Source: Leptospira sp. (GTDB lineage: Bacteria; Spirochaetota; Leptospiria; Leptospirales; Leptospiraceae). From it: DNA of 64,000 nt. The position numbers and the translations under genes were made by a program. Under the pieces are notes generated by a model, which was not told the DNA's origin, did not search any database, and saw only the letters and a program-made list of their open reading frames with translations. The stretch is from assembly GCA_034439575.1 (NCBI GenBank), contig JAWXAQ010000036.1, forward strand, positions 1 to 64,000, read 5' to 3'. Positions 48,242 through 58,743 of the stretch are shown here, piece by piece (the first letter of the stretch is position 1; every line of letters starts with the position of its first letter).

Positions 48242-49048
48242 ATGAAAAAATATCTAATTTTATTATTAGTTCTAACAATTGTAAATTGTTCCAGTACACC
48301 AACGGCAAACTTGCCAGTAAAAAGCACAGTCGAAGGAAAAGCTTTAGAATATAAGCTTGATGGCAAAACTTACGAAGGTTATATGGCCGTAGATAAGTCA
48401 ATTAGCGGAAAGAGACCAGGCATTCTTGTCATACATGAATGGTGGGGACTCAATGAATATCCAAAACAAAGAGCAAGACAACTGGCTGATCTTGGTTATA
48501 CGGCATTTGTTATGGATGTCTATGGAAAAGGAATCATTGCGGCAGATCACAATGAAGCAGGCAAATTATCTGGTGCGAACAGCGATTCAAAGGTACTCCT
48601 AAAGAAAATTAGTGAAGCAATGAAAATTCTTAAAGCAGATCCAAGTGTGGATGCAAATCAAATTGGTGCTATAGGTTATTGTTTTGGGGGAATGGGTGTG
48701 ATAGAAATTGCACTTGATGGCCAAAATTTGAAAGGGGGGATTGTATCATTCCATGGTATGCTTGGTAGTAAAAATTTAAGCAGTGGAGCAAAAAAAGTAA
48801 AAACGAAAATGCTCGTTCATCATGGTGCTGATGATCCTTTTATCCCAAAAGATGCTGTCACTAACTTCGTAAAAACATTAGAAGAAGCGAAAGCACCTTT
48901 GAAATTTGTAGCTCACCCAGGTGCCGTACATGGTTTCACTCGACCTGGATCTGAAAAACATGGACTTCCTGGTTTATCGTATAACAAAGACGCAGATTAT
49001 GCATCCTTTGAAAGTATGAAATCATTTTTCGCTGAAAACTTTAAATAG
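48242..49048 (+). CDS. Dienelactone hydrolase-family lipoprotein
   Basis: AGGAG before ATG 48242; lipobox IVNC; HEWWG, GYCFGG, HGADDP, HGF. Confidence 0.92.
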   Translation: MKKYLILLLVLTIVNCSSTPTANLPVKSTVEGKALEYKLDGKTYEGYMAVDKSISGKRPGILVIHEWWGLNEYPKQRARQLADLGYTAFVMDVYGKGIIAADHNEAGKLSGANSDSKVLLKKISEAMKILKADPSVDANQIGAIGYCFGGMGVIEIALDGQNLKGGIVSFHGMLGSKNLSSGAKKVKTKMLVHHGADDPFIPKDAVTNFVKTLEEAKAPLKFVAHPGAVHGFTRPGSEKHGLPGLSYNKDADYASFESMKSFFAENFK

Positions 49049-52000
49049 ACGATCGGCAAAATAAATAGTGTCAGAAAACTAGAAGTTACTAAGCCACCAA
49101 TAACAACCGTTGCCAGGGGCCTTTGCACTTCCGCCCCTGGTGATGTACTGATTGCCATAGGTATAAATCCTATCGAAGCTAACAATGCCGTTGTTAATAC
49201 TGGGCGCAGTCGAAGATTTGATGCTTCCAAAACAGCATCAAATGTATTCTTGCCACTAACTTCAAGTTGGCGAACGAATGTCACAAGTACAAGTCCGTTC
49301 AATACCGCTATCCCAAATAAGGCAATAAAGCCGATTCCAGCAGAAATGCTAAACGGCATTTGCCGTAAGCTAAGGGCAAAAATACCACCTGTAACTGCTA
49401 GGGGAACATTCAGAAAAATAATTAAAGATGGCTTCCATGATTGAAAGGCAAGATATAAAATAAAGAGGATGATCATTAGCGTAACGGGAACTACAAAAAT
49501 TAAAGTATTCACCGCCGATTGAAATTTTTGAAATTCGCCACCAAGCTCATAACGATAACCAGGTGGAAAAATAACTTTTTTATCAATGGCTTTTTTAACA
49601 TTTTTAACCGTACTCAGCATATCATTTCCACGGATATTAAATTGAACCAGAGCAATTCTATTTTGATCCTGATGATTAATTTGGACTGGTCCATCTTCAA
49701 TCCGGATGTCGGACAACTCACTTAAAGGTACATTTTGTCCATTTGATAAATTGATTGGCAAGTATTTAATATTTTCAATGATTCCATTTAGATCAGATTT
49801 TAAAACAATATCAAATCTCCGCATACCTTCATAAACGACACCTAACATATGACCAGAAGAAATGGTTTCTACAGCATCATTTACTACTTTGACCGATTGT
49901 CCATATCTTGCTAATTTATTTCTATTTGGTGTTATGCGAAGATACTCCAAACCAGAAAGTTGTTCAATACGTAAATCAGTAACTCCTTTTTCATTTCGTA
50001 TATTTTCAGAAATTGACTCGCCAATTTCTTTTAACTTTTGTAAGTCGTCTCCATAAATTTTGATTCCAACATCCGCGCGAATGCCCGCCATAATTTCATT
50101 GTTTCTCATTTCGATCGGTTGGGAAATGCCAAAGGAAACTTCTGGAACTTGTTCACTTAAAATATTGGAAATTTTTGTTTCCAATTCTTCTTTGCTTTGG
50201 CTCCACTCTTTTCTCGGTTTCAATTCAAGATAAACATCAGTTTTATCTATTCCCATTGGTTCTACCGCTAATTCAGGTGAACCTGTTCTAGATGTGATAC
50301 CTGTAATTTCAGAAATTTGATTTAACAAAAGTTTCTCAATTTTTAGGGATGTATCTATTGAATTCTGTAAAGAAGAAGAAGGAAGTCTTGTAATTTCAAT
50401 GAGTAAGTTTCCTTCATCCAATTTTGGCAAAAACTCACCGCCCATAAAAATAAACATAACAATTGAGCTGACAAAAATAAGAACAGTTGTGACCATTGCT
50501 ACTTTGCTATTAGAAATCATATAATTTAACTTAGGTGAATACCAGGTTAAAATTTTGTGAAAAAATAATGTCTCGTTATGCGAGTTAGCATCAGATTTTA
50601 ATAAATAAGAGGCAAGAACTGGAATAATTGTTAATGTAAGGAAAAAAGCACCGAGTAATGCAAATAACACGGTTGTTGCCATTGGAATAAACATTTTACC
50701 TTCTGTTCCGCCCAATACGAAAATTGGAATGTACACTATGCCGATGATGATTTCACCAAAGATAGTGGCCTTTCTAACTTCAATCGTAGCATTCAAAATG
50801 GTTTCTTGTTTTTCTGATTGTGTTAATTGGCGTCCAAATTCTTTTCCTTTTTCTAACAATCGCCGATGTGAGTTTTCTATTAAAATGACAGCACCATCTA
50901 CGATAAGACCAAAATCTATGGCGCCCATTGACATCAAGTTAGCTGGTAAATCTCTTAAATGCATCATTCCTAAGGCAAAAAGCATCGCCAATGGAATGAT
51001 ACTTGCAATTACTAGTCCTGAGCGAATATCTCCAATCATCACAAACAAAATAATGATAACAAGAATTGCGCCTTCTGATAAATTCCAAATTACTGTTTGA
51101 ATCGAATTGGAAACCATAATCGTACGATCATAGTAAGGAACTATCTTCAGACCAATGGGCAGTGTCTTTTGAATCGATAGGATTTTTTCTTTGACTGCCC
51201 CAGTAACTTCTAATGAATTTTGACCAATTAACATAAGTGTGACGGCACCTACGACTTCGCCTTTTCCATTTGCAGTTGCAGCACCCTTTCTAAGTTTGAA
51301 GCCTTCCTCAATTCTCGCAACGGATTTGATTTGAATAGGGAATCCATCTTTTGTTTGACTAATTTGAATTTTTTGAATGTCCTCTATATTTTTTATTAAG
51401 CCATCACTGCTTATGATCAATTGTTCTTTGTTTTTTTCTAAATACCCACTGCCTGTAGATGAATTATTTTTTACTATAGCTTCTGCTATATCAAGAAATG
51501 ATACACCTAACGAAGACATAGCTTGGTGATTTGCTAAAATTTGAAATTCCTTTGTTTTCCCACCAAAGGTATTCACTTCGACTATACCTGGAACAGTTTT
51601 TAACATTGGATTGATAAGCCAATTGAGGTAGGTAGTTTTTTGAATATGATCAAATTCATCTCCTTCCAATGTGAATTGAAATATTTCACCAAGACCAGTT
51701 GTGATCGGTGCAATTTGTGGCGTTCCAAAATTTTTTGGTATTAGGGAACTAACTTCTTGTAATTTTTCACTGATCAATTGTCTACAATTCAACAAATCTG
51801 ATCCATCTTCAAATACCGCTGTGATTAAGGAAAACCCATACCGTGAGACGGAACGCACTTCAATTAATTTGGGAGTTCCTGATATTGCTCTTTCGACAGG
51901 GTAGGTAATATATTGTTCAATCTCCAATGCAGATAATGATGGTGAGGTGGTGATGATTTGCACTTGGATATTTGTTATATCTGGAACTGCATCAATTTTA

Positions 52001-52107
52001 ATTTTTGTCGCACTATTTATCCCAAATAGTACCAATAAAAAAGTGAGAAAAAGTATGATTGGTCTATTGTTTAAGGACCATCTAACAAGATAAGTTAAGA
52101 TTTCCAT
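48997..52107 (-). CDS. czcA: Heavy-metal RND transporter, CzcA/CusA family
   Basis: IDAVPDITN, TTGLGEI, AIDFGLIVDGAVILIEN, FLPKLDEG, GAEVQRPLATVV. Confidence 0.93.
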   Translation of the reverse strand: MEILTYLVRWSLNNRPIILFLTFLLVLFGINSATKIKIDAVPDITNIQVQIITTSPSLSALEIEQYITYPVERAISGTPKLIEVRSVSRYGFSLITAVFEDGSDLLNCRQLISEKLQEVSSLIPKNFGTPQIAPITTGLGEIFQFTLEGDEFDHIQKTTYLNWLINPMLKTVPGIVEVNTFGGKTKEFQILANHQAMSSLGVSFLDIAEAIVKNNSSTGSGYLEKNKEQLIISSDGLIKNIEDIQKIQISQTKDGFPIQIKSVARIEEGFKLRKGAATANGKGEVVGAVTLMLIGQNSLEVTGAVKEKILSIQKTLPIGLKIVPYYDRTIMVSNSIQTVIWNLSEGAILVIIILFVMIGDIRSGLVIASIIPLAMLFALGMMHLRDLPANLMSMGAIDFGLIVDGAVILIENSHRRLLEKGKEFGRQLTQSEKQETILNATIEVRKATIFGEIIIGIVYIPIFVLGGTEGKMFIPMATTVLFALLGAFFLTLTIIPVLASYLLKSDANSHNETLFFHKILTWYSPKLNYMISNSKVAMVTTVLIFVSSIVMFIFMGGEFLPKLDEGNLLIEITRLPSSSLQNSIDTSLKIEKLLLNQISEITGITSRTGSPELAVEPMGIDKTDVYLELKPRKEWSQSKEELETKISNILSEQVPEVSFGISQPIEMRNNEIMAGIRADVGIKIYGDDLQKLKEIGESISENIRNEKGVTDLRIEQLSGLEYLRITPNRNKLARYGQSVKVVNDAVETISSGHMLGVVYEGMRRFDIVLKSDLNGIIENIKYLPINLSNGQNVPLSELSDIRIEDGPVQINHQDQNRIALVQFNIRGNDMLSTVKNVKKAIDKKVIFPPGYRYELGGEFQKFQSAVNTLIFVVPVTLMIILFILYLAFQSWKPSLIIFLNVPLAVTGGIFALSLRQMPFSISAGIGFIALFGIAVLNGLVLVTFVRQLEVSGKNTFDAVLEASNLRLRPVLTTALLASIGFIPMAISTSPGAEVQRPLATVVIGGLVTSSFLTLFILPIVYLKFSAKNDFILSKDA

Positions 52108-53255
52108 TATTCTTCACCAAACGTAGATTTGAATAAGATTGATTTTAATTCAAAACCACCAGAAATTACCAATTCATCATTTGCGTTAAGTCCAGAAGAT
52201 ATTTCTGTTTCGTCATCGATCACATTACCGATTTGCACTTGTGTCCATTTAAAAGTTTGTGAACCAACTTTGATAAAAACATAATTTTGATTTTTGAGTG
52301 TAAACAGAGAAGTAGTTGGAATTTTGATTCCTTGTTTTCCTGATTTTTCTATAAATGCCTTTCCGAAGAGGCCTATTTTTCCTTTGTTATTTTGATTTTT
52401 AAAAACGATTCTTGCATGAATCGTCCTCGAAATCGGATCAACTTTTTCTCCGATATGTTCTAAGGTTCCTGAAAATTCATCATCAGGATAAGCATTCAAT
52501 ATAACTTTTGCTATATCTCCTTCCGAAAGGAACTTTAAATCTCCTTCGAAAATTTTGCCTTGAAACCATAAATGACTTAGATCAGCTATAGTTGTTAAAG
52601 TCTGGTTGCCCAAAACTTGTGAACCCAAAACAGCATTTCTAAATATAGCCTTTCCTGACCGTGGTGCTATTACTTGGTAAGTTCCGGACATGGAATCTGA
52701 CAGGCCTAGTCCGTTGACTCGTAAATTTTCTTCTGAAGCATTTTTTTCTGATATTAAAACTTTCAAGTTCGATTCGGAATCGATAAGCTCTTGTTTTGCG
52801 GCCAGATTCATTTGGACTAAGGATCGTATTCTCTCTACATTTTGTTGTGCAGCAAAAAGTTTTGATTTGGCCGTTATATAATTGGAACGAAGTTTTGCCA
52901 ATTCGGGTGAGTCGATAACCACAAGGACCTTTCCTTTTTTTATGAAGTCACCTTCCACAAAATTGACTTGAGTGATACGACCAGATAATCTTGCTGGAAC
53001 GTCTAAGATTGAATCAGGAACTGCTTCCGTTTCACCTAATAACTGTATTTTTCTACCGAAGTTTGTCAGTTCGATTGGTTTGGTTTTTATTAATAAATTT
53101 TTTGTAGTATTTTCAGAGAGTTCAAGAATATTTTGATTTTGAATTTCTGCTTTGTCTAAATTTATATTATCTGTTTTTGATTTAGAATTTAAATAAAAAT
53201 ATGCAGTTAGAGATAAAAGCAGGATAACGATTGTTATAACTATTTTGTTTTTCAT
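52107..53255 (-). CDS. czcB: Membrane fusion protein CzcB/CusB
   Basis: GDFIKKG..L..IDSPEL, IADLSHLW, VDPISRT, EISSGL. Confidence 0.92.
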   Translation of the reverse strand: MKNKIVITIVILLLSLTAYFYLNSKSKTDNINLDKAEIQNQNILELSENTTKNLLIKTKPIELTNFGRKIQLLGETEAVPDSILDVPARLSGRITQVNFVEGDFIKKGKVLVVIDSPELAKLRSNYITAKSKLFAAQQNVERIRSLVQMNLAAKQELIDSESNLKVLISEKNASEENLRVNGLGLSDSMSGTYQVIAPRSGKAIFRNAVLGSQVLGNQTLTTIADLSHLWFQGKIFEGDLKFLSEGDIAKVILNAYPDDEFSGTLEHIGEKVDPISRTIHARIVFKNQNNKGKIGLFGKAFIEKSGKQGIKIPTTSLFTLKNQNYVFIKVGSQTFKWTQVQIGNVIDDETEISSGLNANDELVISGGFELKSILFKSTFGEE

Positions 53256-54589
53256 GGTAACTCTGTTATGATGATTTTTTCATTCGGAAGTCCGAGAGCA
53301 CGAATGAGTTCAATTTGTGCTAATTCGTATTCCGTTTTTGTTTGTAGATAATTGATCCGCGTTTGAACGAGAATTCTTTGGTTATTGATGGCATCTAAAA
53401 CTTTTATTTTCCCACTTTGTAAGGCTTCTGTTATATGATTCAAATCAGATAAACTTCGATTCAGCATAACTTCATCATACATCTCAAATTCTTCTTTAGA
53501 ATTTAGGTAATTCGAAATTGCATTGATAACATCTTGTTTGACAGATCTTTCTGTAAGCGCTCTAAATTCTATTGATTGATCTTCTTTGGCTTTAGAAATC
53601 ATAGTCTCTCCTTCATAATTGCGCCATAAAGTTAAAGGAAAACTAATTTGGCCCCCGATCACTCGTTCATTAAATCCATCGTTTTGTACAAAGGCACCCA
53701 AACTTGGATTAGGTATTTTTTGTAATCTTACTTCTTGTGATCGTAATACAGCTATTTTAATTTCTTTTTCCACAACTTTAAGCTCTGGTCGATTTTGAAT
53801 GGCGATAGAAATTAAATTTTCTTTATCTTGCGGTACGGATATAACTAGCTGAAATTTTGGTTTCCATTTCCATTCTTCATCGGTTGATACATTTAGAAGT
53901 AATTGCAATTCACCTTTCGCTTGTTCCATTCTTCTTACTGACTGCTTCCAAATTTTTGCCATTCTAAGTTCTTCCGATTCAGAAAGGCTTTCATCTATTC
54001 CGGGTGTTATACCTTCACGAACGCGAGCCTTTGAAAGTTTTGTTAAATTCTTAGACAAATTGTATAAGTCAGAAGTTACATAGACTTCATTCTGTAGATT
54101 TAGGTATCGGAAAAGCGATGCCATCGATAAAAAATAAATATTTCGACTAATCGTATTTAAACGCAATACCTGAGTTTGAAATTCTTCATCAGCAATTTGA
54201 ATTGATTTTTCGCGTTTTCCTGCGACAAAAATTTCTTGCGAAACCATTATTTGGAAATTGGTTGCATGATTTGTTTCAGGAAAAAATCCTAATTGGCTCC
54301 CTTGCTGATTTCTATTTGAAAGATAAGTCGAAATATTGGGATTGTTTGGAAAATAATACTCTGCTATTTTTTTCCGACCGAGCATTTCGTTTAATCGAAG
54401 TAATTCGATTTGGTAACTAGGATGCTGATTTATGGCACACGAAGATACTCTTTCTAAATTCCATGGAGGTTTACAGTTAACCCTCTCTTCAGAAATAAGT
54501 ATGCTAGGAAAAGATAATAAAAGACAAAATATAAAAGTATATATAGCGCGCATAATGCGATGCGCAAAATACCTTTGGGTAAAATACAT
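53252..54589 (-). CDS. czcC: TolC-family outer membrane factor CzcC
   Basis: PNNPNIS, SQEI, NRPEL, ISFPLTLW, SGKI..LD; GGAGG RBS; first gene of CBA. Confidence 0.88.
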   Translation of the reverse strand: MYFTQRYFAHRIMRAIYTFIFCLLLSFPSILISEERVNCKPPWNLERVSSCAINQHPSYQIELLRLNEMLGRKKIAEYYFPNNPNISTYLSNRNQQGSQLGFFPETNHATNFQIMVSQEIFVAGKREKSIQIADEEFQTQVLRLNTISRNIYFLSMASLFRYLNLQNEVYVTSDLYNLSKNLTKLSKARVREGITPGIDESLSESEELRMAKIWKQSVRRMEQAKGELQLLLNVSTDEEWKWKPKFQLVISVPQDKENLISIAIQNRPELKVVEKEIKIAVLRSQEVRLQKIPNPSLGAFVQNDGFNERVIGGQISFPLTLWRNYEGETMISKAKEDQSIEFRALTERSVKQDVINAISNYLNSKEEFEMYDEVMLNRSLSDLNHITEALQSGKIKVLDAINNQRILVQTRINYLQTKTEYELAQIELIRALGLPNEKIIITELP

Positions 54590-54591
54590 AA

Positions 54592-54649
54592 GACCTCCAT
54601 GAAAATAAATTACTAAATTTTCTTTAAGTAATGTTTTCGCGTGGAGGTC
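54592..54649 (-). promoter_or_regulatory. SD-sequestering hairpin joining leader-ORF RPP codons and the czcC RBS
   Basis: mRNA GACCUCCA/UGGAGGUC, GAAAA/UUUUC and AUUACU/AGUAAU nested stems. Confidence 0.8.
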
Positions 54650-55004
54650 GGAAGTATCCTTCAGTTGTAGAATATTCCAAAAATACGAGTGTCGGGAAGG
54701 AAAGGTATATTTTGTTTAAACTAATCAATACAGGATATAAATTTAAATCCCAAGAAACGACTAGTTGCAAATTGCAAGGGCAAGAAAGACAAACATGATC
54801 TTTATGATCACCTTCTTCTTCTATGTCATGACTTGTTTCTATTCCCAAAGAATGATCTAAAAATGAATATTGGCAGGTGCTTTCAACAGAACCTAACACC
54901 CCACAAATAGCTTCATTATCGACAATTTTTTGTGCGGTGAAATTAAGGCAAAAAATGATTACAAAAACAATTTTAAATAGTCTGTATAGTGTAATCTTTC
55001 CCAT
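54624..55004 (-). CDS. CzcI/DUF2946-like leader protein (signal, His/Cys motif, C-terminal RPP)
   Basis: Hydrophobic N-terminus, DHKDHVCLSCPC, YFRPPR; 34 nt upstream of czcC. Confidence 0.75.
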   Translation of the reverse strand: MGKITLYRLFKIVFVIIFCLNFTAQKIVDNEAICGVLGSVESTCQYSFLDHSLGIETSHDIEEEGDHKDHVCLSCPCNLQLVVSWDLNLYPVLISLNKIYLSFPTLVFLEYSTTEGYFRPPRENIT

Positions 55005-55185
55005 CTTTGATTTTAGAATCTCTTACTTTAATATGACGTAAATTTCTAATCTAATACAATAGCTATAGAATCATTTGGTTAAAAATTTGTCTGTTTAAAA
55101 ATATATAGGGATGATTCCTTAAAATGCGATTCATTTAATAACAAACCTTCTTGCCTAAGAATTAGTTTTTAAAGAATTTGTTACT

Positions 55186-57138
55186 ATGCCGCAAACATTT
55201 CCTATTTGGAAACCTACCTCAAAATCACAAAATATAACTGAATTTCAAAATCATTTAGCGCAAATATACGGTTTAACGTTCAATTCGTATTCAGAATTTC
55301 ATAAATGGTCTGTTTCTCATTTGGAAAAATTTTGGTCTGCTTGGGCAAAAAGTTCAAAATTTATTTTTCGAAGAGAAGGGACAGAAACTGTTAGGTTTGG
55401 AAAAAATTTTTGGGAAACAGAATGGTTTCCTGGTTCGGAAATTAATTTTGCAGAAAATTTATTGGAAAAAGGTGAACCGAATCATATCGCCTTACATTTC
55501 TTACGTGAAGATGGTCAAAAGATTGAATTAACATATAGAGACTTAAAAACTAAAGTTACAAACCTAGCAAATTATTTTGTTTCTATTGGAATCAATAAGG
55601 GTGATAGAATTTGTGGATTAGTCCCAAATTCTCCGATTTCCACAATAGGCATGTTAGCCGCTACTTCACTTGGAGCTATATGGTCGAGTGCTTCTCCTGA
55701 TTTTGGAGTGAAAGGTGTTCTTGATCGTTTTGAACAAATTTCCCCTAAGGTTTTATTGACAGTTGATTCCTATTTATTTAAAGGTAAAAAGATTTCAATC
55801 CTAGAGAAAGTGATTGAAGTATCAAATCGGTTAGGTGACTCGAATCCAGAATATAAAGCAACACTTATCAGCTCTTTTTTAGGAGACTCGTTTTCTTTAG
55901 ATTCGATACGATATCCGATACGTTATGAGGAAATACTCGAATCAAAGAGTCCTCTGATTTACACTCCAATTACATTCCAAGATCCAGTGTACATAATGTT
56001 TTCATCGGGGACGACTGGACTTCCGAAATGTATCGTCCAAGGAGCTGGCGTTTTATTAAACCAAACGAAAGAATTGGCATTGCATTGTAATTTAACAAAG
56101 AATGATAAATTGTTTTATTACACTACTTGCGGATGGATGATGTGGAATTGGTCACAGGCTACCTTAGCTCTCGGTGCTACACTGTATCAATTTGATGGCA
56201 ATCCATTTTATCCCAACTGGCAGACGTTATGGGACTGGTCAAATAAAGAAAATATTAATATTTTTGGAACAAGTGCCAAATACTTATCAGTTTTGGAATC
56301 CGAAAAAGCAGAGCCTATCAACCATTTTAATTTGGAGTCTCTAAAAATCATTCTATCAACGGGTAGTCCTTTGTTTCCTTCTGGATTTCGTTATGTATAC
56401 TCAAATATAAAAAAAGATGTCCAATTATCATCTATTTCCGGGGGAACCGACTTGAATGGTTGTTTTGCGCTCGGATATCCCGAATTGCCTGTGTTCGAAG
56501 GTGAATTGCAATGCATTGGTCTCGGGATGGACGTGAAAGTATTTAGTGAAGATGGATTGGCCATAGAACAAGAAAAAGGTGAACTAGTTTGTTTGAAACC
56601 TTTCCCGAGTATGCCACTATATTTTTGGAATGATCCAGATAGGAAAAAATATAAATCGGCATACTTTGACCGATTTGAAAATATCTGGTGTCATGGAGAC
56701 TTTGCTGAAATCACAACTAATGGCGGTATGGTGATTCATGGCCGATCAGATGCCACTTTAAATCCTGGTGGAGTAAGAATTGGCACTGCAGATATTTATT
56801 CTGTAGTTGAGACTTTTGCAGAAATAGCGGATTCAGTCATTATTGGTCAAGAATGGAAAGATGATGTGAGGGTGATTTTGTTTTTAAAAATGGCTCCAAA
56901 TCATATGTTAGATGATGAATTGAAAAGTAAAGTTAAGGATAAAATCAAAAATCAAACTTCCCCTAGACATGTTCCTAGTTTGGTTTTGGAAGTGAAAGAC
57001 ATTCCATACACAGTGAATGGCAAAAAAGTAGAAATAGCAGTCAAACAAACTGTGCTCGGTCAAGTCGTCAAAAATCAAAATGCTTTAGCAAATCCGGAAG
57101 CATTGGTATACTTTGCAAATAGAAAAGAATTACTATGA
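55186..57138 (+). CDS. Acetoacetate-CoA ligase
   Basis: WFPGSEINFAEN, FSSGTTGLPKCIV, YTTCGWMMWNW, SISGGTD, GRSDATLNPGGVRIG. Confidence 0.95.
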   Translation: MPQTFPIWKPTSKSQNITEFQNHLAQIYGLTFNSYSEFHKWSVSHLEKFWSAWAKSSKFIFRREGTETVRFGKNFWETEWFPGSEINFAENLLEKGEPNHIALHFLREDGQKIELTYRDLKTKVTNLANYFVSIGINKGDRICGLVPNSPISTIGMLAATSLGAIWSSASPDFGVKGVLDRFEQISPKVLLTVDSYLFKGKKISILEKVIEVSNRLGDSNPEYKATLISSFLGDSFSLDSIRYPIRYEEILESKSPLIYTPITFQDPVYIMFSSGTTGLPKCIVQGAGVLLNQTKELALHCNLTKNDKLFYYTTCGWMMWNWSQATLALGATLYQFDGNPFYPNWQTLWDWSNKENINIFGTSAKYLSVLESEKAEPINHFNLESLKIILSTGSPLFPSGFRYVYSNIKKDVQLSSISGGTDLNGCFALGYPELPVFEGELQCIGLGMDVKVFSEDGLAIEQEKGELVCLKPFPSMPLYFWNDPDRKKYKSAYFDRFENIWCHGDFAEITTNGGMVIHGRSDATLNPGGVRIGTADIYSVVETFAEIADSVIIGQEWKDDVRVILFLKMAPNHMLDDELKSKVKDKIKNQTSPRHVPSLVLEVKDIPYTVNGKKVEIAVKQTVLGQVVKNQNALANPEALVYFANRKELL

Positions 57139-57198: not shown

Positions 57199-58743
57199 TT
57201 ACTTGATTTTCGAAAATTCAAAAATAGTAAGTTTCTTTCCCTCAATGGTCTTTTCTAGTTTATTATATTTATTTAAAACTTTCAATATGGAATTATAATG
57301 TTCTTCTGGCGGGAAGAGCCCAATTTTTATCGCCTGTTCCACCATAGGTGTCATTTTAATTTTACTAAAAATCAAATTTTTAGGAATCAATATTTTTGAA
57401 TGATTTTTTGCCAAAAATGAATCTAGCTGTTCTGCATTTCTAGGTAACATTGAGGGCACAGACAAATAATATCCCCCAGAATATAGAACGATAGATTCAC
57501 ATCCCGCCATATGCAAACTAACATCCATTTGATTTAAATCATCTTGGAATTGGCGAATGTCTTTTGTCGCAAGACTTTGTGCCTTAAAACCTATCACTAA
57601 AATTAATATGGAAAAAAATAAACCAAAATAAGTGAAGCGCATTGGCCATTTATTTTTTGCCTGCAAAATATGGATTATATAAGTATCAAATAAAAAGAGA
57701 CAAGGCAAAATACCCAAATTCAAATAACGAGCACCCCAATTCGTGACACCATCGTTAGGTGCAATTATTGCAATGAAAGGTAAAAAGAATAGCAATGTAT
57801 AGGCGAGGATTCTATATTTATTTTCAGACTTAAGATTTTTTCTAAATAAATTCCAGACGAGTGCTACGAGAAAGATCGGTGTAAAACCGAAAAATCCAAT
57901 TTTCCAATTTGCTAAAAAGAGAAGGTGGATCACTTGATCCAATCTTTCTGCAAATACAAAATTGTTTAAACTACCTTGGTTGATCACAAAGCGAGCCCCG
58001 AGAGGGTGATGGTATAATAAATAATTTTCAGAAAAGAAACAAATTAAAGGAAGTAAGACGCCGAGAAGTGAATAGAAATACTCCTTCAAAAATTTTATGA
58101 GATTCATTTTGTATTCTAGTATTAGGATGATAAAATAAAAACCTCCAACAAAAACTAATGTTTCCAACCGAAGGAATATCCCAATGGTTAGAAAAAAAGC
58201 GGAGAAAAATAAATTAATTTTATTTTTTTCTTTGAAGAAAAAAAACAATCCCAATGCCTGAAACAATAGTAACATTGAATTTTCAGAATATTCTAAACCT
58301 TGAAATAAGAGAGGAGTTCCAAGGCTCGCGAGTATTAGAGTTAAAAAATGAAGTTGTTTCGTTATATAAAATATGAAATAAGAAACAAAAGCAAAAATCA
58401 GACAAATGTATGGTAAAAATTTCCAAGAAATAAATTTTAATAATACCGCGTTAAAATAAGCGAAGTTAAAGGGAAAGGGAGATATGATTTTGTTTTCCAC
58501 TTTCAGAACATATAAAGGAATCGGATACATTTCCATTGAAGTATCTATCTCTTTTGAGCTATAAAATAATTCCTCAGACATGTATGAGTTTTTTTGAATG
58601 GAAACGGTTTGGACTAATTTGACAAAACTATCTAGAGCATAAGTGGATTCGGGTTTAAGTTTATAAAGGTGAATGAAAAAGATTGCGACTAATATAACGC
58701 TAAGGGAAAAAATTCGAACTTTAGGATTTGAAAAATAATTCAT
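57199..58743 (-). CDS. Polytopic membrane protein, putative GT-C-type glycosyltransferase
   Basis: About 11 TM segments; DSFVK, YSEN, LRLE, HPLGAR, WGARYL. Confidence 0.65.
   Translation of the reverse strand: MNYFSNPKVRIFSLSVILVAIFFIHLYKLKPESTYALDSFVKLVQTVSIQKNSYMSEELFYSSKEIDTSMEMYPIPLYVLKVENKIISPFPFNFAYFNAVLLKFISWKFLPYICLIFAFVSYFIFYITKQLHFLTLILASLGTPLLFQGLEYSENSMLLLFQALGLFFFFKEKNKINLFFSAFFLTIGIFLRLETLVFVGGFYFIILILEYKMNLIKFLKEYFYSLLGVLLPLICFFSENYLLYHHPLGARFVINQGSLNNFVFAERLDQVIHLLFLANWKIGFFGFTPIFLVALVWNLFRKNLKSENKYRILAYTLLFFLPFIAIIAPNDGVTNWGARYLNLGILPCLFLFDTYIIHILQAKNKWPMRFTYFGLFFSILILVIGFKAQSLATKDIRQFQDDLNQMDVSLHMAGCESIVLYSGGYYLSVPSMLPRNAEQLDSFLAKNHSKILIPKNLIFSKIKMTPMVEQAIKIGLFPPEEHYNSILKVLNKYNKLEKTIEGKKLTIFEFSKIK

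Follow-up and report, generated by a model that had tools for sequence, protein, structure and literature searches.

The czcCBA operon and its surroundings

The window in this study, the whole 64,000-nucleotide stretch of Leptospira sp. DNA that was analyzed, contains a minus-strand operon with the gene order leader ORF-czcC-czcB-czcA. A preliminary description of this DNA had proposed that the small first ORF is a metal-sensing ribosome-arrest switch controlling czcCBA. The genes of the operon and the region upstream of it are as follows.

54624-55004, minus strand: leader ORF, first gene of the operon, 126 codons plus TAA
53252-54589, minus strand: czcC-like outer-membrane efflux protein, 445 aa (PF02321 OEP, E 1.4e-28)
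52107-53255, minus strand: czcB-like periplasmic adaptor, 382 aa (PF16576 HlyD_D23; TIGR01730 above its cut-off)
48997-52107, minus strand: CusA/CzcA-family heavy-metal RND pump (ACR_tran), 1036 aa (TIGR00914, 1056 bits against a cut-off of 701)
55005-55185, no strand assigned: divergent intergenic region of 181 nt, which by its position must hold the operon promoter (not located)

The start of czcB overlaps the stop of czcC, and the start of czcA overlaps the stop of czcB. Compared with solved structures, the pump scored nearly equally with ZneA (556 bits) and CusA (545 bits). Its TM4, DFGLIVDGAVILIEN, resembles DFG-DGA-VEN, which we take to be the signature of divalent-cation HME pumps.

The preliminary description stated that no two-component or MerR regulator lies beside the operon. 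This agrees with our scans, in which two-component, MerR and other regulator domains were absent from the seven ORFs of 120 aa or more that flank the operon within some 6 kb. A separate czcC promoter in the 34-nt gap between the leader ORF and czcC had been named as a finding that would speak against the switch. A consensus scan found no minus-strand sigma-70-like site in that gap or elsewhere in 54400-55300, and a scan of the same kind found no terminator-like site in the same interval. Rfam gave 0 matches at E up to 1 in 54300-55400, which indicates that no known riboswitch or leader RNA lies there.

The leader ORF

The protein features of the leader ORF, all encoded on the minus strand, are the following.

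54933-55004, minus strand: residues 1-24, a K/R-containing start followed by a hydrophobic stretch, candidate export signal or N-in/C-out anchor (from the sequence)
54873-54920, minus strand: residues 29-44, DNE-x2-CG-x2-G-x2-E-x2-C block holding the first Cys pair, C34 and C44 (family alignment)
54771-54806, minus strand: residues 67-78, H-K-D-H-V-C-L-S-C-P-C-N, candidate metal-binding motif H-x-C-x-x-C-P-C-N (family alignment)
54651-54779, minus strand: residues 76-118, a 43-residue spacer ("ruler") of fixed length and poorly conserved sequence
54639-54653, minus strand: residues 118-122, F-R-P-P-R, candidate ribosome-pause motif, five residues before the stop

A signal-like N-terminus, a His/Cys cluster and R119-P120-P121 near the C-terminus had been described previously, and each was found. 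The K/R-containing and then hydrophobic start coincides with helix 2-34, the sole confident part of the AlphaFold2 model (block pLDDT 82-94). C72, C75 and C77 lie within DHKDHVCLSCPC, and five residues remain after the Pro-Pro pair. The N-terminus has no obvious canonical A-x-A site, so it may be an uncleaved anchor. The mean pLDDT of the model was 50.4, with values below 50 at residues 41-103 and 106-126, and the mature part of the leader protein is thus predicted to be disordered. Profile scans against Pfam and NCBIfam gave no match for the leader ORF. A search of the 8,819 genomic ORFs with 60 aa or more gave a single match, so no second small ORF of this type is present, and the same genome encodes EF-P.

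Distribution and conservation of the leader family

The leader ORF was matched in 38 of the 41 genomes of the genus, with 39 matches and none with internal stops. Among 301 Spirochaetota genomes the family was found in 23, every one of them Leptospiraceae, and its members include named saprophytic Leptospira species. The leader ORF is therefore a member of a small family confined to Leptospiraceae. A profile search with the genus alignment (A1) covered 1.84 billion representatives exhaustively and found 14 proteins with E-values up to 0.001; 13 of these were in-family, and no bridge to other families appeared. A 798-aa protein matched over 40 residues in this search was set aside as unrelated.

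The type of gene that follows the leader is constant. A czcC-like gene comes next in all 26 outgroup loci and an ORF of 422-445 aa in all 30 genus loci. In the genus loci the gap before that gene is 34-59 nt (34 nt here), and in members from a Leptospiraceae MAG clade, some of which have strong hairpins, it is 120-276 nt.

The proposed alignment of orthologous loci for CxxC and RPP found both invariant in the 30 genus sequences. At 44-60% identity, these orthologues share M1, C34, C44, H51, H59, H67, H70, C72, C75 and C77 as well as F118, R119, P120 and P121. In the family alignment (A2, 20 sequences), D29, C34, G35, G38, E41 and C44 of the first block and H70, C72, C75 and P76 of the second are invariant, and C77 and N78 are at least 90% conserved; C72-x-x-C75 is thus invariant in both alignments. 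Relatives with identities down to 27% retain C34, C44, H70, C72, C75, P120 and P121. Among 57 unique family sequences, the pause-motif variants were FRPPK (32), FRPPR (14), IRPPR (8), NRPPK (2) and VKPPS (1).

The distance between the two motifs is fixed. From the second Cys of CxxCP[C/S] to [R/K]PP there are exactly 43 residues in 57 of 57 unique sequences, and a hand count gave 43 residues in L074 also. In the same 57 sequences, the linker from the first Cys pair to CxxC has 12-27 residues and the tail that follows PP has 2-7. A similarly fixed spacing of 45 residues is reported for CruR, where altered spacing impairs regulation (PMC9426467). An exact spacer at identities down to 27% amounts to a natural experiment on the distance from metal site to peptidyl-transferase centre that would set the sensor.

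A predicted hairpin over the czcC Shine-Dalgarno sequence

The last leader codons and the 34-nt gap before czcC are predicted to form one hairpin, with the following parts.

54592-54649, minus strand: long bipartite hairpin (MFE and centroid structures identical)
54642-54649 with 54592-54599, minus strand: outer stem, in which GACCUCCA is the exact complement of UGGAGGUC
54634-54638 with 54601-54605, minus strand: middle stem GAAAA/UUUUC (predicted fold)
54627-54632 with 54609-54614, minus strand: inner stem AUUACU/AGUAAU (predicted fold)
54594-54598, minus strand: GGAGG Shine-Dalgarno (SD) sequence of czcC, 4 nt before the ATG at 54587-54589

One long hairpin with both nested stems had been proposed, and folding recovered it. 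The 121-nt stretch folded at -32.7 kcal/mol compared with a shuffle mean of -17.7 (sd 3.35; z -4.49), and none of the 200 shuffled sequences was as stable. At this locus the predicted probability that the SD is paired with the RPP codons is 1.0. As a crude control, 65 same-strand gene pairs of the same genome with a gap of 20-60 nt and an SD present were folded; the probability of the SD pairing with the final 27 nt of the preceding ORF exceeded 0.5 in five pairs and 0.95 in none. The predicted SD sequestration at this locus is more than chance.

The exact complementarity between the RPP codons and the SD, which the preliminary description had emphasized, is present but is less informative than it appeared. 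When the last eight codons at this locus were recoded synonymously, the SD stayed sequestered (P >0.5) in every one of 100 recodings. The GACCUCCA/UGGAGGUC match is less remarkable because CCN-CCN is inherently complementary to GGAGG, and it is largely a by-product of the Pro-Pro codons. Taken to its end, this observation would strip the locus of any regulatory role: Pro-Pro codons opposite a GGAGG would be enough to produce the hairpin, and the ORF would encode a small lineage-specific protein with an unrelated function. The orthologous loci bear on this explanation, which the recodings at this locus favor.

Pairing of the SD with the stretch between the RPP codons and the stop codon was predicted (P >0.5) in 25 of the 30 genus orthologues, a count that overstates independent support because the orthologues are related; the mean probability was 0.81. 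In 16 of the 30 the SD pairs with codons after RPP and in nine with the RPP codons, and in five loci sequestration was not predicted. Masking by leader codons was likewise not predicted in the MAG clade with 120-276-nt gaps. Synonymous recoding gave an expectation of 17.5 of 30 loci on average, so much of the SD pairing follows from the leader amino-acid sequence, as a by-product would require. The maximum over 100 recoding replicates was 23, however, and the observed count lies above every replicate. For example, in L002, L004, L005 and L011 the expected pairing was 0.20-0.38 and the observed pairing about 1.0. The inner stems are also retained with differing sequences among orthologues. These results, the low genome background of five pairs in 65 and the strict linkage of the leader to czcC make an explanation without regulatory meaning very improbable.

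For the two candidate arms, pairing was seen in 75% and 73% of cells; sliding the partner by 1-3 columns lowered this to 25-47%. The RPP codons as a conserved anti-SD, an idea of the preliminary description, did not hold up: only nine of 30 orthologues pair the SD there, and the P120 codon is variable at its third base (CCT 12, CCA 13, CCG 3, CCC 2). Since the third positions of the RPP codons vary freely, selection acts on the peptide. The suggested check for covarying anti-SD/SD pairing had a divided outcome, with predicted SD pairing widespread but only the inner stem recovered as a consensus. RNAalifold on the 30 orthologous 3' regions gave only a 4-bp inner stem at -0.84 kcal/mol and no consensus outer helix. 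Because the 5' arm shifts its register from one species to another, the SD helix yielded no classical covariation evidence, and two-sided compensation is not expected there because the SD is invariant. The leader architecture as a whole (candidate export signal, Cys cluster, Pro-Pro near the stop and predicted SD-sequestering hairpin) is supported in silico as conserved at 27-60% identity. CruR and CutF have been defined by features of this set (PMC9426467, PMC9973294).

Strength of the candidate pause motif

In the ORFs of this genome of at least 150 aa, RPPK occurs 5 times against 5.2 expected and RPPR 7 times against 2.7, whereas RAPP and RGPP are each absent against 3.9 and 4.4 expected. 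RPP[K/R] is not avoided in the proteome and is thus unlikely to be a hard arrest motif by itself; alone, it is probably a weak, EF-P-sensitive pause. Arginine upstream of PP is among the residues reported to strengthen polyproline pauses (PMC5811046). A pause is not strictly required, since any translating ribosome also opens the hairpin. If the switch exists, RPP[K/R] would show that a weak polyproline pause suffices.

Proposed mechanism and alternatives

We give a probability of roughly 0.6 to the reading that the leader ORF is a regulatory peptide of the CutF/CruR kind, sensing metal during its own synthesis and export. By analogy with those systems, the leader probably switches on translation of the pump in the presence of metal. 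Within this reading we infer that the peptide is exported, binds metal and pauses the ribosome, and we also infer the direction of the response; induction by metal is an assumption made from the efflux function of the target. Of the arrest switch first proposed, the architecture and the predicted SD masking stand, and the spacing of Cys motif and Pro motif is fixed at 43 residues, but the RPP codons as a conserved anti-SD do not hold.

The N-terminal hydrophobic segment would direct co-translational export. With the ribosome at R119-P120-P121, the C72-x-x-C75-P-C77 cluster with H67 and H70 would lie 43-48 residues behind the peptidyl-transferase centre, and so just outside the exit tunnel, at or in the translocon. 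Formation of the Pro-Pro peptide bond, which is intrinsically slow, would produce a pause, and metal on the exposed cluster would prolong it, for instance by preventing disulfide formation or chain-pulling folding, as proposed for CutF. A paused ribosome covers roughly the next 12-15 nt. A ribosome with P120/P121 in its P and A sites would therefore cover both 5' arms, the RPP codons and the tail codons, and the czcC GGAGG, 49 nt downstream of the pause, would stay free for a second ribosome. Translation of czcC would follow, and then that of czcB and czcA, which are packed closely behind it. Without metal, the leader would be finished quickly, the hairpin would re-form and czcC initiation would be blocked.

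The same hairpin geometry also fits ordinary translational coupling, because a ribosome reading the last nine codons would melt the 5' arm. In such an arrangement the hairpin would do no more than tie the occurrence and frequency of czcC translation to those of the upstream gene, there would be no regulated pause and RPP would be a structural or interaction motif. The leader product would be a stable, mature exported or membrane-anchored periplasmic metal-binding accessory protein, for example a CzcI-like regulator or a pump chaperone. Several observations agree with this. First, five Cys and four His are invariant and D29, N30 and E31 are conserved in the genus, which exceeds the residue conservation described for CruR-type leaders, and so many invariant Cys, His and acidic residues would be just as compatible with a role in a mature periplasmic protein. 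Secondly, RPP[K/R] is not avoided in the proteome. Third, the nearest named Atlas set by language-model features was CzcI (PF28244), with a feature score of 0.96 and 137 of 256 features shared; no alignment or E-value lies behind this score, which is a lead only. CzcI itself is encoded upstream of czcCBA in Cupriavidus and is reported to have no proline motif (PMC9973294). However, a fixed-length, sequence-variable and predicted-disordered spacer of 43 residues has no obvious role in a folded protein, and no fold was predicted (pLDDT 50). In addition, RPP always lies 2-7 residues from the stop, and coupling leaves the missing nearby regulator of the efflux pump unexplained. We consider coupling with an accessory protein doubtful.

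A regulatory peptide could also work at the level of transcription, with a default stall at RPP that metal relieves and with Rho-dependent polarity or mRNA decay acting on czcCBA. CruR operates in this manner (PMC9426467), and the MAG members with 120-276-nt gaps, in which SD masking was not predicted and some strong hairpins occur, would suit it. At this locus, by contrast, the gap is 34 nt (34-59 nt across the 30 genus loci) and the SD lies within the hairpin. A metal-relieved stall would moreover shut the efflux pump off when it is needed, and no terminator-like site was found in 54400-55300. This logic is therefore improbable for the leader.

The nascent-chain metal sensor, if true, would explain how czcCBA is controlled in saprophytic and intermediate Leptospira without a nearby two-component or MerR regulator. 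If confirmed, it would be the first switch of the CutF/CruR type examined in a spirochaete and before an RND heavy-metal pump, and it would provide a test case in the commonest genomic context of CutF-like proteins. A more specific form of this reading is put forward tentatively and may well not hold in full. In it, the leader would be an independent (convergent or unrecognizably diverged) transmembrane nascent-chain metal sensor with an R-P-P-[K/R] core, a 43-residue ruler from H-x-C-x-x-C-P-C and two interchangeable anti-SD arms in its last nine codons. As the only regulator of a CzcA-type pump, it would respond to a divalent cation (Zn, Cd or Co) rather than copper.

Comparison with known systems

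The preliminary description knew of no comparable system in a spirochaete, a claim of novelty that was too strong. A published survey covers 5,334 CutF-like proteins, in which the commonest downstream neighbour is an OEP of the CusC/CzcC type; Spirochaetota members exist in that set and are given as scarce (PMC9973294). The claim is further weakened by UniRef, which labels two members of the leader family (L. fletcheri and L. fluminis) "DUF2946 domain-containing protein", a source label that the PF11162 searches described below did not reproduce. In the literature, no paper was found on Leptospira together with DUF2946, and for Leptospira czc regulation none of the matches listed was on the topic, judged by title.

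The closest parallel in arrangement is CutF of Rhodobacter capsulatus (cutFOG). Cu-induced CutO synthesis is reported to depend on the CutF signal peptide, its CxxxC motif, its C-terminal PPP and the SD-shielding stem-loop (PMC9973294; bioRxiv 10.1101/2025.02.05.636593). Both are small proteins (118 aa for CutF, 126 aa for the leader), CutF exported and the leader putatively so, with two upstream Cys followed by CxxxC in CutF and CxxC in the leader. Both have Pro-Pro with a basic residue near the stop (GPPPRL-stop in CutF, FRPPRENIT-stop in the leader) and a short gap with a stem-loop shielding the SD of the next gene, predicted in the case of the leader. The target in each is metal detoxification. 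In terms of the published CutF-like rule set (PMC9973294), the leader is shorter than 150 aa, has PP in its last 15 residues and has a same-strand neighbour at a gap below 1000 nt, and so passes the four rule-based filters examined. The two differ in several respects. No sequence homology between them was detected, and the leader has RPP[K/R] in place of PPP, CxxCPC with an extra invariant His, and two alternative anti-SD arms within its coding region. The target of the leader is an RND pump, that of CutF a multicopper oxidase.

CruR (Bp2923) of Bordetella pertussis is the prototype of Pfam DUF2946/PF11162 (PMC9426467). As described there, it has in common with the leader an export signal (a candidate one in the leader), CxxC, a fixed-length spacer (45 residues in CruR, 43 in the leader) and Arg with Pro-Pro three to five residues from the end. 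It also heads a metal-homeostasis operon and is predicted to be poorly structured. The leader spacing agrees with the DUF2946 pattern, in which the spacing is conserved to within 1-2 residues. In contrast, CruR has RAPP rather than RPP, a 162-nt gap and Rho-dependent termination; its target is an uptake receptor, and metal turns the operon off. Membership in the family was not detected. PF11162 (gathering score 23.7 bits) left the leader protein unmatched at E up to 1. With the limit relaxed to E up to 10, it still matched none of the 30 genus members and none of 10 distant ones, and a scan of the whole genome at E up to 1 gave 0 matches. RAPP or RGPP occurs in 0 of 57 leader-family sequences, and [F/I/N]-R-P-P-[K/R] in 56 of 57. 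An hhalign comparison of A2 (20 sequences) with a DUF2946-like alignment, A3, gave a probability of 2% and an E-value of 0.025 over 27 columns covering HxCxxC only, a weak negative result because A3 is small. A3 consisted of seven sequences, one above the PF11162 cut-off and the others weak matches with RAPP or RGPP. Leaders of the canonical CPxC-46 aa-GRAPP form were also observed in another Leptospira group at genus level, where they precede a different gene.

RAPP-like arrest peptides are known with RAGP in SecM, RAPP in ApdA/ApdP and RGPP (PMC12992588). In common with these, as described there, the leader is a small, putatively secretory or membrane protein encoded upstream of a candidate regulated gene and carries an Arg-containing Pro motif near its C-terminus. 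The absence of RAPP and RGPP from the larger ORFs of this genome matches general reports. The leader has no Ala or Gly between Arg and Pro-Pro. [quoted passage not shown]

Lastly, CzcI of Cupriavidus metallidurans is, like the leader, a small protein encoded directly upstream of czcCBA. It has been suggested to be a metal-sensing regulator, and differs from the leader, in that account, by the lack of a C-terminal proline motif (PMC9973294). The concept of a nascent-chain metal switch is already published, and by its likeness to these systems the leader family appears to be an RPP[K/R] variant of the same kind.

Organization of the operon and its neighbors

The genes of the operon, with position and strand in the window, are as follows.

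54624-55004, minus strand: leader ORF, 126 codons
34 nt after the leader ORF, minus strand: czcC-like gene for an outer-membrane efflux protein, 445 aa
Downstream of the outer-membrane efflux gene, minus strand: HlyD_D23 adaptor, 382 aa
After the adaptor gene, minus strand: RND pump, 1036 aa, TIGR00914 match

The pump scored 1056 bits against TIGR00914 (CusA/CzcA heavy-metal family; cut-off 701). Against solved structures, the pump scored nearly as high with CusA (545 bits) as with ZneA (556 bits), which does not single out a metal. The leader protein had no match in Pfam or NCBIfam. Seven ORFs in about 6 kb of flanking sequence contain metabolic or transport domains or no domain, and no regulator domain was found among them. 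A 514-aa ORF at 57199-58743 (minus strand) has many hydrophobic segments and matched nothing in Pfam at E up to 0.001. The genome also carries a gene for EF-P.

Ahead of the leader, the window has a 181-nt divergent region and then a gene for an AMP-binding enzyme. In six of the seven other species examined (loci L002, L005, L006, L010, L022 and L026), a same-strand ORF of 365-390 aa lies upstream and ends no more than 25 nt from the leader ATG; in five species it stops 4-25 nt ahead of the ATG, and in L026 there is a 4-nt overlap. Of these ORFs, the pair scanned by Pfam, in L006 and L002, are DUF1574 proteins (PF07611). Thus, the boundaries of the operon vary among species.

Distribution of the leader family

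The leader ORF is a genuine gene, conserved within a small family. It was matched in 38 of 41 same-genus genomes at 41-60% identity to the query, and none of the 39 matches contained an internal stop. A profile built from 30 orthologues and searched against 1.84 billion representative proteins yielded just 14 hits (E up to 0.001), of which 13 were relatives of 103-131 aa. Named records with family members include Leptospira idonii, chreensis, abararensis, vanthielii, soteropolitanensis, kemamanensis, yanagawae, jelokensis, haakeii, ryugenii, fletcheri and fluminis, in addition to Leptospiraceae metagenome-assembled genomes (MAGs). The family was present in 23 of 301 sampled Spirochaetota genomes, all from the Leptospiraceae: 18/18, 0/15, 3/10 and 1/1 in its genus-level groups g1 to g4, and 0/256 in other families. 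A czcC-like gene followed the leader in all 26 outgroup loci (20 in one set and six in another).

In Leptospira chreensis (genome G007), the leader and its czcC-like neighbor occur twice on one 419-kb contig, in opposite orientation and about 150 kb apart (loci L032 and L033). The two leaders do not differ in sequence and their czcC neighbors score equally, indicating that this part of the locus, at the least, was recently duplicated.

Conserved features of the leader protein

The preliminary description had placed a C72/C75/C77 cluster in DHKDHVCLSCPC and R119-P120-P121 five residues before the end of the leader, and both were found as claimed. Residues invariant in the alignment of the 30 orthologues include D29-N30-E31, C34, C44, H51, H59, H67, H70, C72, C75, C77 and F118-R119-P120-P121. 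Once relatives down to 27% identity were added, the invariant residues were D29, C34, G35, G38, E41, C44, H70, C72, C75, P76, P120 and P121.

The distance from the second Cys of the CxxC to the Arg of RPP was exactly 43 residues in all 57 unique sequences, and a hand count gave the same spacer at one extra locus. In the 57 sequences, the linker from the first Cys pair to the CxxC varies in length (12 to 27 residues), as does the tail past PP (two to seven). The spacer itself is poorly conserved in sequence across the wider family alignment of 20 sequences. The fixed 43-residue ruler is the most telling feature of the family. The candidate pause motif was FRPPK in 32 of the 57 sequences, FRPPR in 14, IRPPR in eight, NRPPK in two and VKPPS in one. 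The third positions of the RPP codons are free to vary among orthologues; thus, conservation is on the peptide and not on the RNA. The predicted structure (mean pLDDT 50.4) is confident for helix 2-34 only, with the whole mature part at low confidence.

Predicted masking of the czcC Shine-Dalgarno sequence

All coordinates and motifs of the preliminary description were correct, including GACCUCCA at 54642-54649 facing UGGAGGUC at 54592-54599, along with both nested inner stems. Folding of the 121-nt stretch gave -32.7 kcal/mol, compared with -17.7 (sd 3.35) for shuffled sequences (z -4.49; 0 of 200 shuffles as low). When each orthologue was folded separately by partition function, the czcC Shine-Dalgarno sequence (SD) was predicted to pair with the final leader codons, RPP through the stop (P > 0.5), in 25 of 30, counts that are not independent because the orthologues are kin. 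The partner varied: it was the RPP codons in nine and the tail codons, often AACCU of Asn-Leu, in 16. Pairing in the two named helices was seen in 75% and 73% of the cells of the alignment, compared with 25-47% after the partner was slid. RNAalifold recovered a 4-bp inner stem alone, and deeper lineages retain inner stem-loops of different sequence.

Synonymous recoding of the last codons (100 replicates) left a mean of 17.5 and a maximum of 23 of 30 orthologues paired. Thus, the observed pairing is enriched, yet largely imposed by the peptide; at the window locus, the SD was still paired in 100 of 100 recodings. As a control, 65 other same-strand gene pairs of the genome gave P >= 0.5 in five and P >= 0.95 in none.

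Most members of the genus have a conserved palindrome in the leader-czcC gap (columns 38-78 of the alignment), CGCAAT and ATTGCG separated by 3 to 5 nt, which forms the inner stem; the window has ATTACT...AGTAAT in its place. The palindrome could be a nucleating stem alone or a protein-binding site as well.

The gap measures 120-276 nt in Leptospiraceae MAG clades, where leader codons are not predicted to mask the SD. Gaps of this length occur in MAG and outgroup lineages (L043, L044, L046, L048, L051 and L074), some with very stable hairpins or repeats. For example, the last 12 leader codons plus the 135-nt gap of L051 fold at -51.7 kcal/mol. These long gaps and predicted folds suggest a different coupling mechanism in those lineages.

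Probable pause strength and proposed mechanism

An Arg upstream of PP is reported as one of the residues that strengthen polyproline pauses (PMC5811046). Motifs were counted in the genome's ORFs of 150 aa or more (3,079 in total), where PP overall occurred at 0.85 of expectation. RPPK (5 vs 5.2 expected) and RPPR (7 vs 2.7 expected) were not avoided, which makes a hard arrest core unlikely for RPP[K/R]. At most, one should expect of it a weak pause that depends on context, like that reported for CutF. In the same ORFs RAPP (3.9 expected) and RGPP (4.4 expected) were absent, consistent with reports that these arrest cores are avoided.

Most likely, the leader works as a CutF-like nascent-chain switch in which metal would lengthen the pause and so promote czcC translation. 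The ribosome would pause with P120 and P121 in its P and A sites. At that point the Cys/His cluster, 43-48 residues back along the chain, would lie just beyond the tunnel. With a footprint reaching some 12-15 nt past the P site, the paused ribosome would cover both alternative anti-SD arms and leave GGAGG, 49 nt downstream of the pause, free. Metal bound by the cluster would prolong the pause and open czcC to initiation. Plain translational coupling, with the leader maturing into a CzcI-like periplasmic protein, is on balance improbable but still a serious rival, since a ribosome simply reading through would open the hairpin too.

Comparison with CutF, CruR and DUF2946

The DUF2946 model matched 0/30 and 0/10 family members and nothing in the genome. 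Profile-profile comparison of the family with seven DUF2946-type sequences aligned the HxCxxC stretch alone, with a probability of 2%. Two family members carry the UniRef label "DUF2946 domain-containing." Our literature search found no paper linking Leptospira with DUF2946.

The concept of such a switch is already published, in a catalogue of 5,334 CutF-like proteins that mentions scarce Spirochaetota members and in which the gene downstream is most often an OEP gene of the CusC/CzcC type (PMC9973294). CutF is described as a small Sec-exported protein; copper-induced CutO synthesis needs its CxxxC, its C-terminal PPP and the SD-shielding stem-loop downstream. EF-P is reported to counteract the stalling there, and copper in the periplasm to enhance it (PMC9973294; bioRxiv 10.1101/2025.02.05.636593). 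The leader shares this layout, known here from sequence and predicted fold, and agrees with the rule-based "CutF-like" criteria that were checkable. The family is thus "CutF-like" by rules, not by demonstrated homology, and by analogy probably functions like CutF and CruR.

In group g2 (L077, L079, L080, L081 and L082), short ORFs encode CP-x-C and, some 46 residues further on, GRAPP close to the stop; they sit 33-56 nt upstream of a 476-484-aa gene without CzcC/B/A similarity. They match PF11162 only weakly (E 0.02-0.7), and from their sequences look like canonical CruR-type leaders in spirochaetes.

In CruR, 45 residues separate CXXC from RAPP, and this spacing is reported to matter (PMC9426467); in the leader family 43 residues lie between CxxC and RPP. 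Two features of this family merit specialist interest: its ruler of exactly 43 residues and its RPP[K/R] core.
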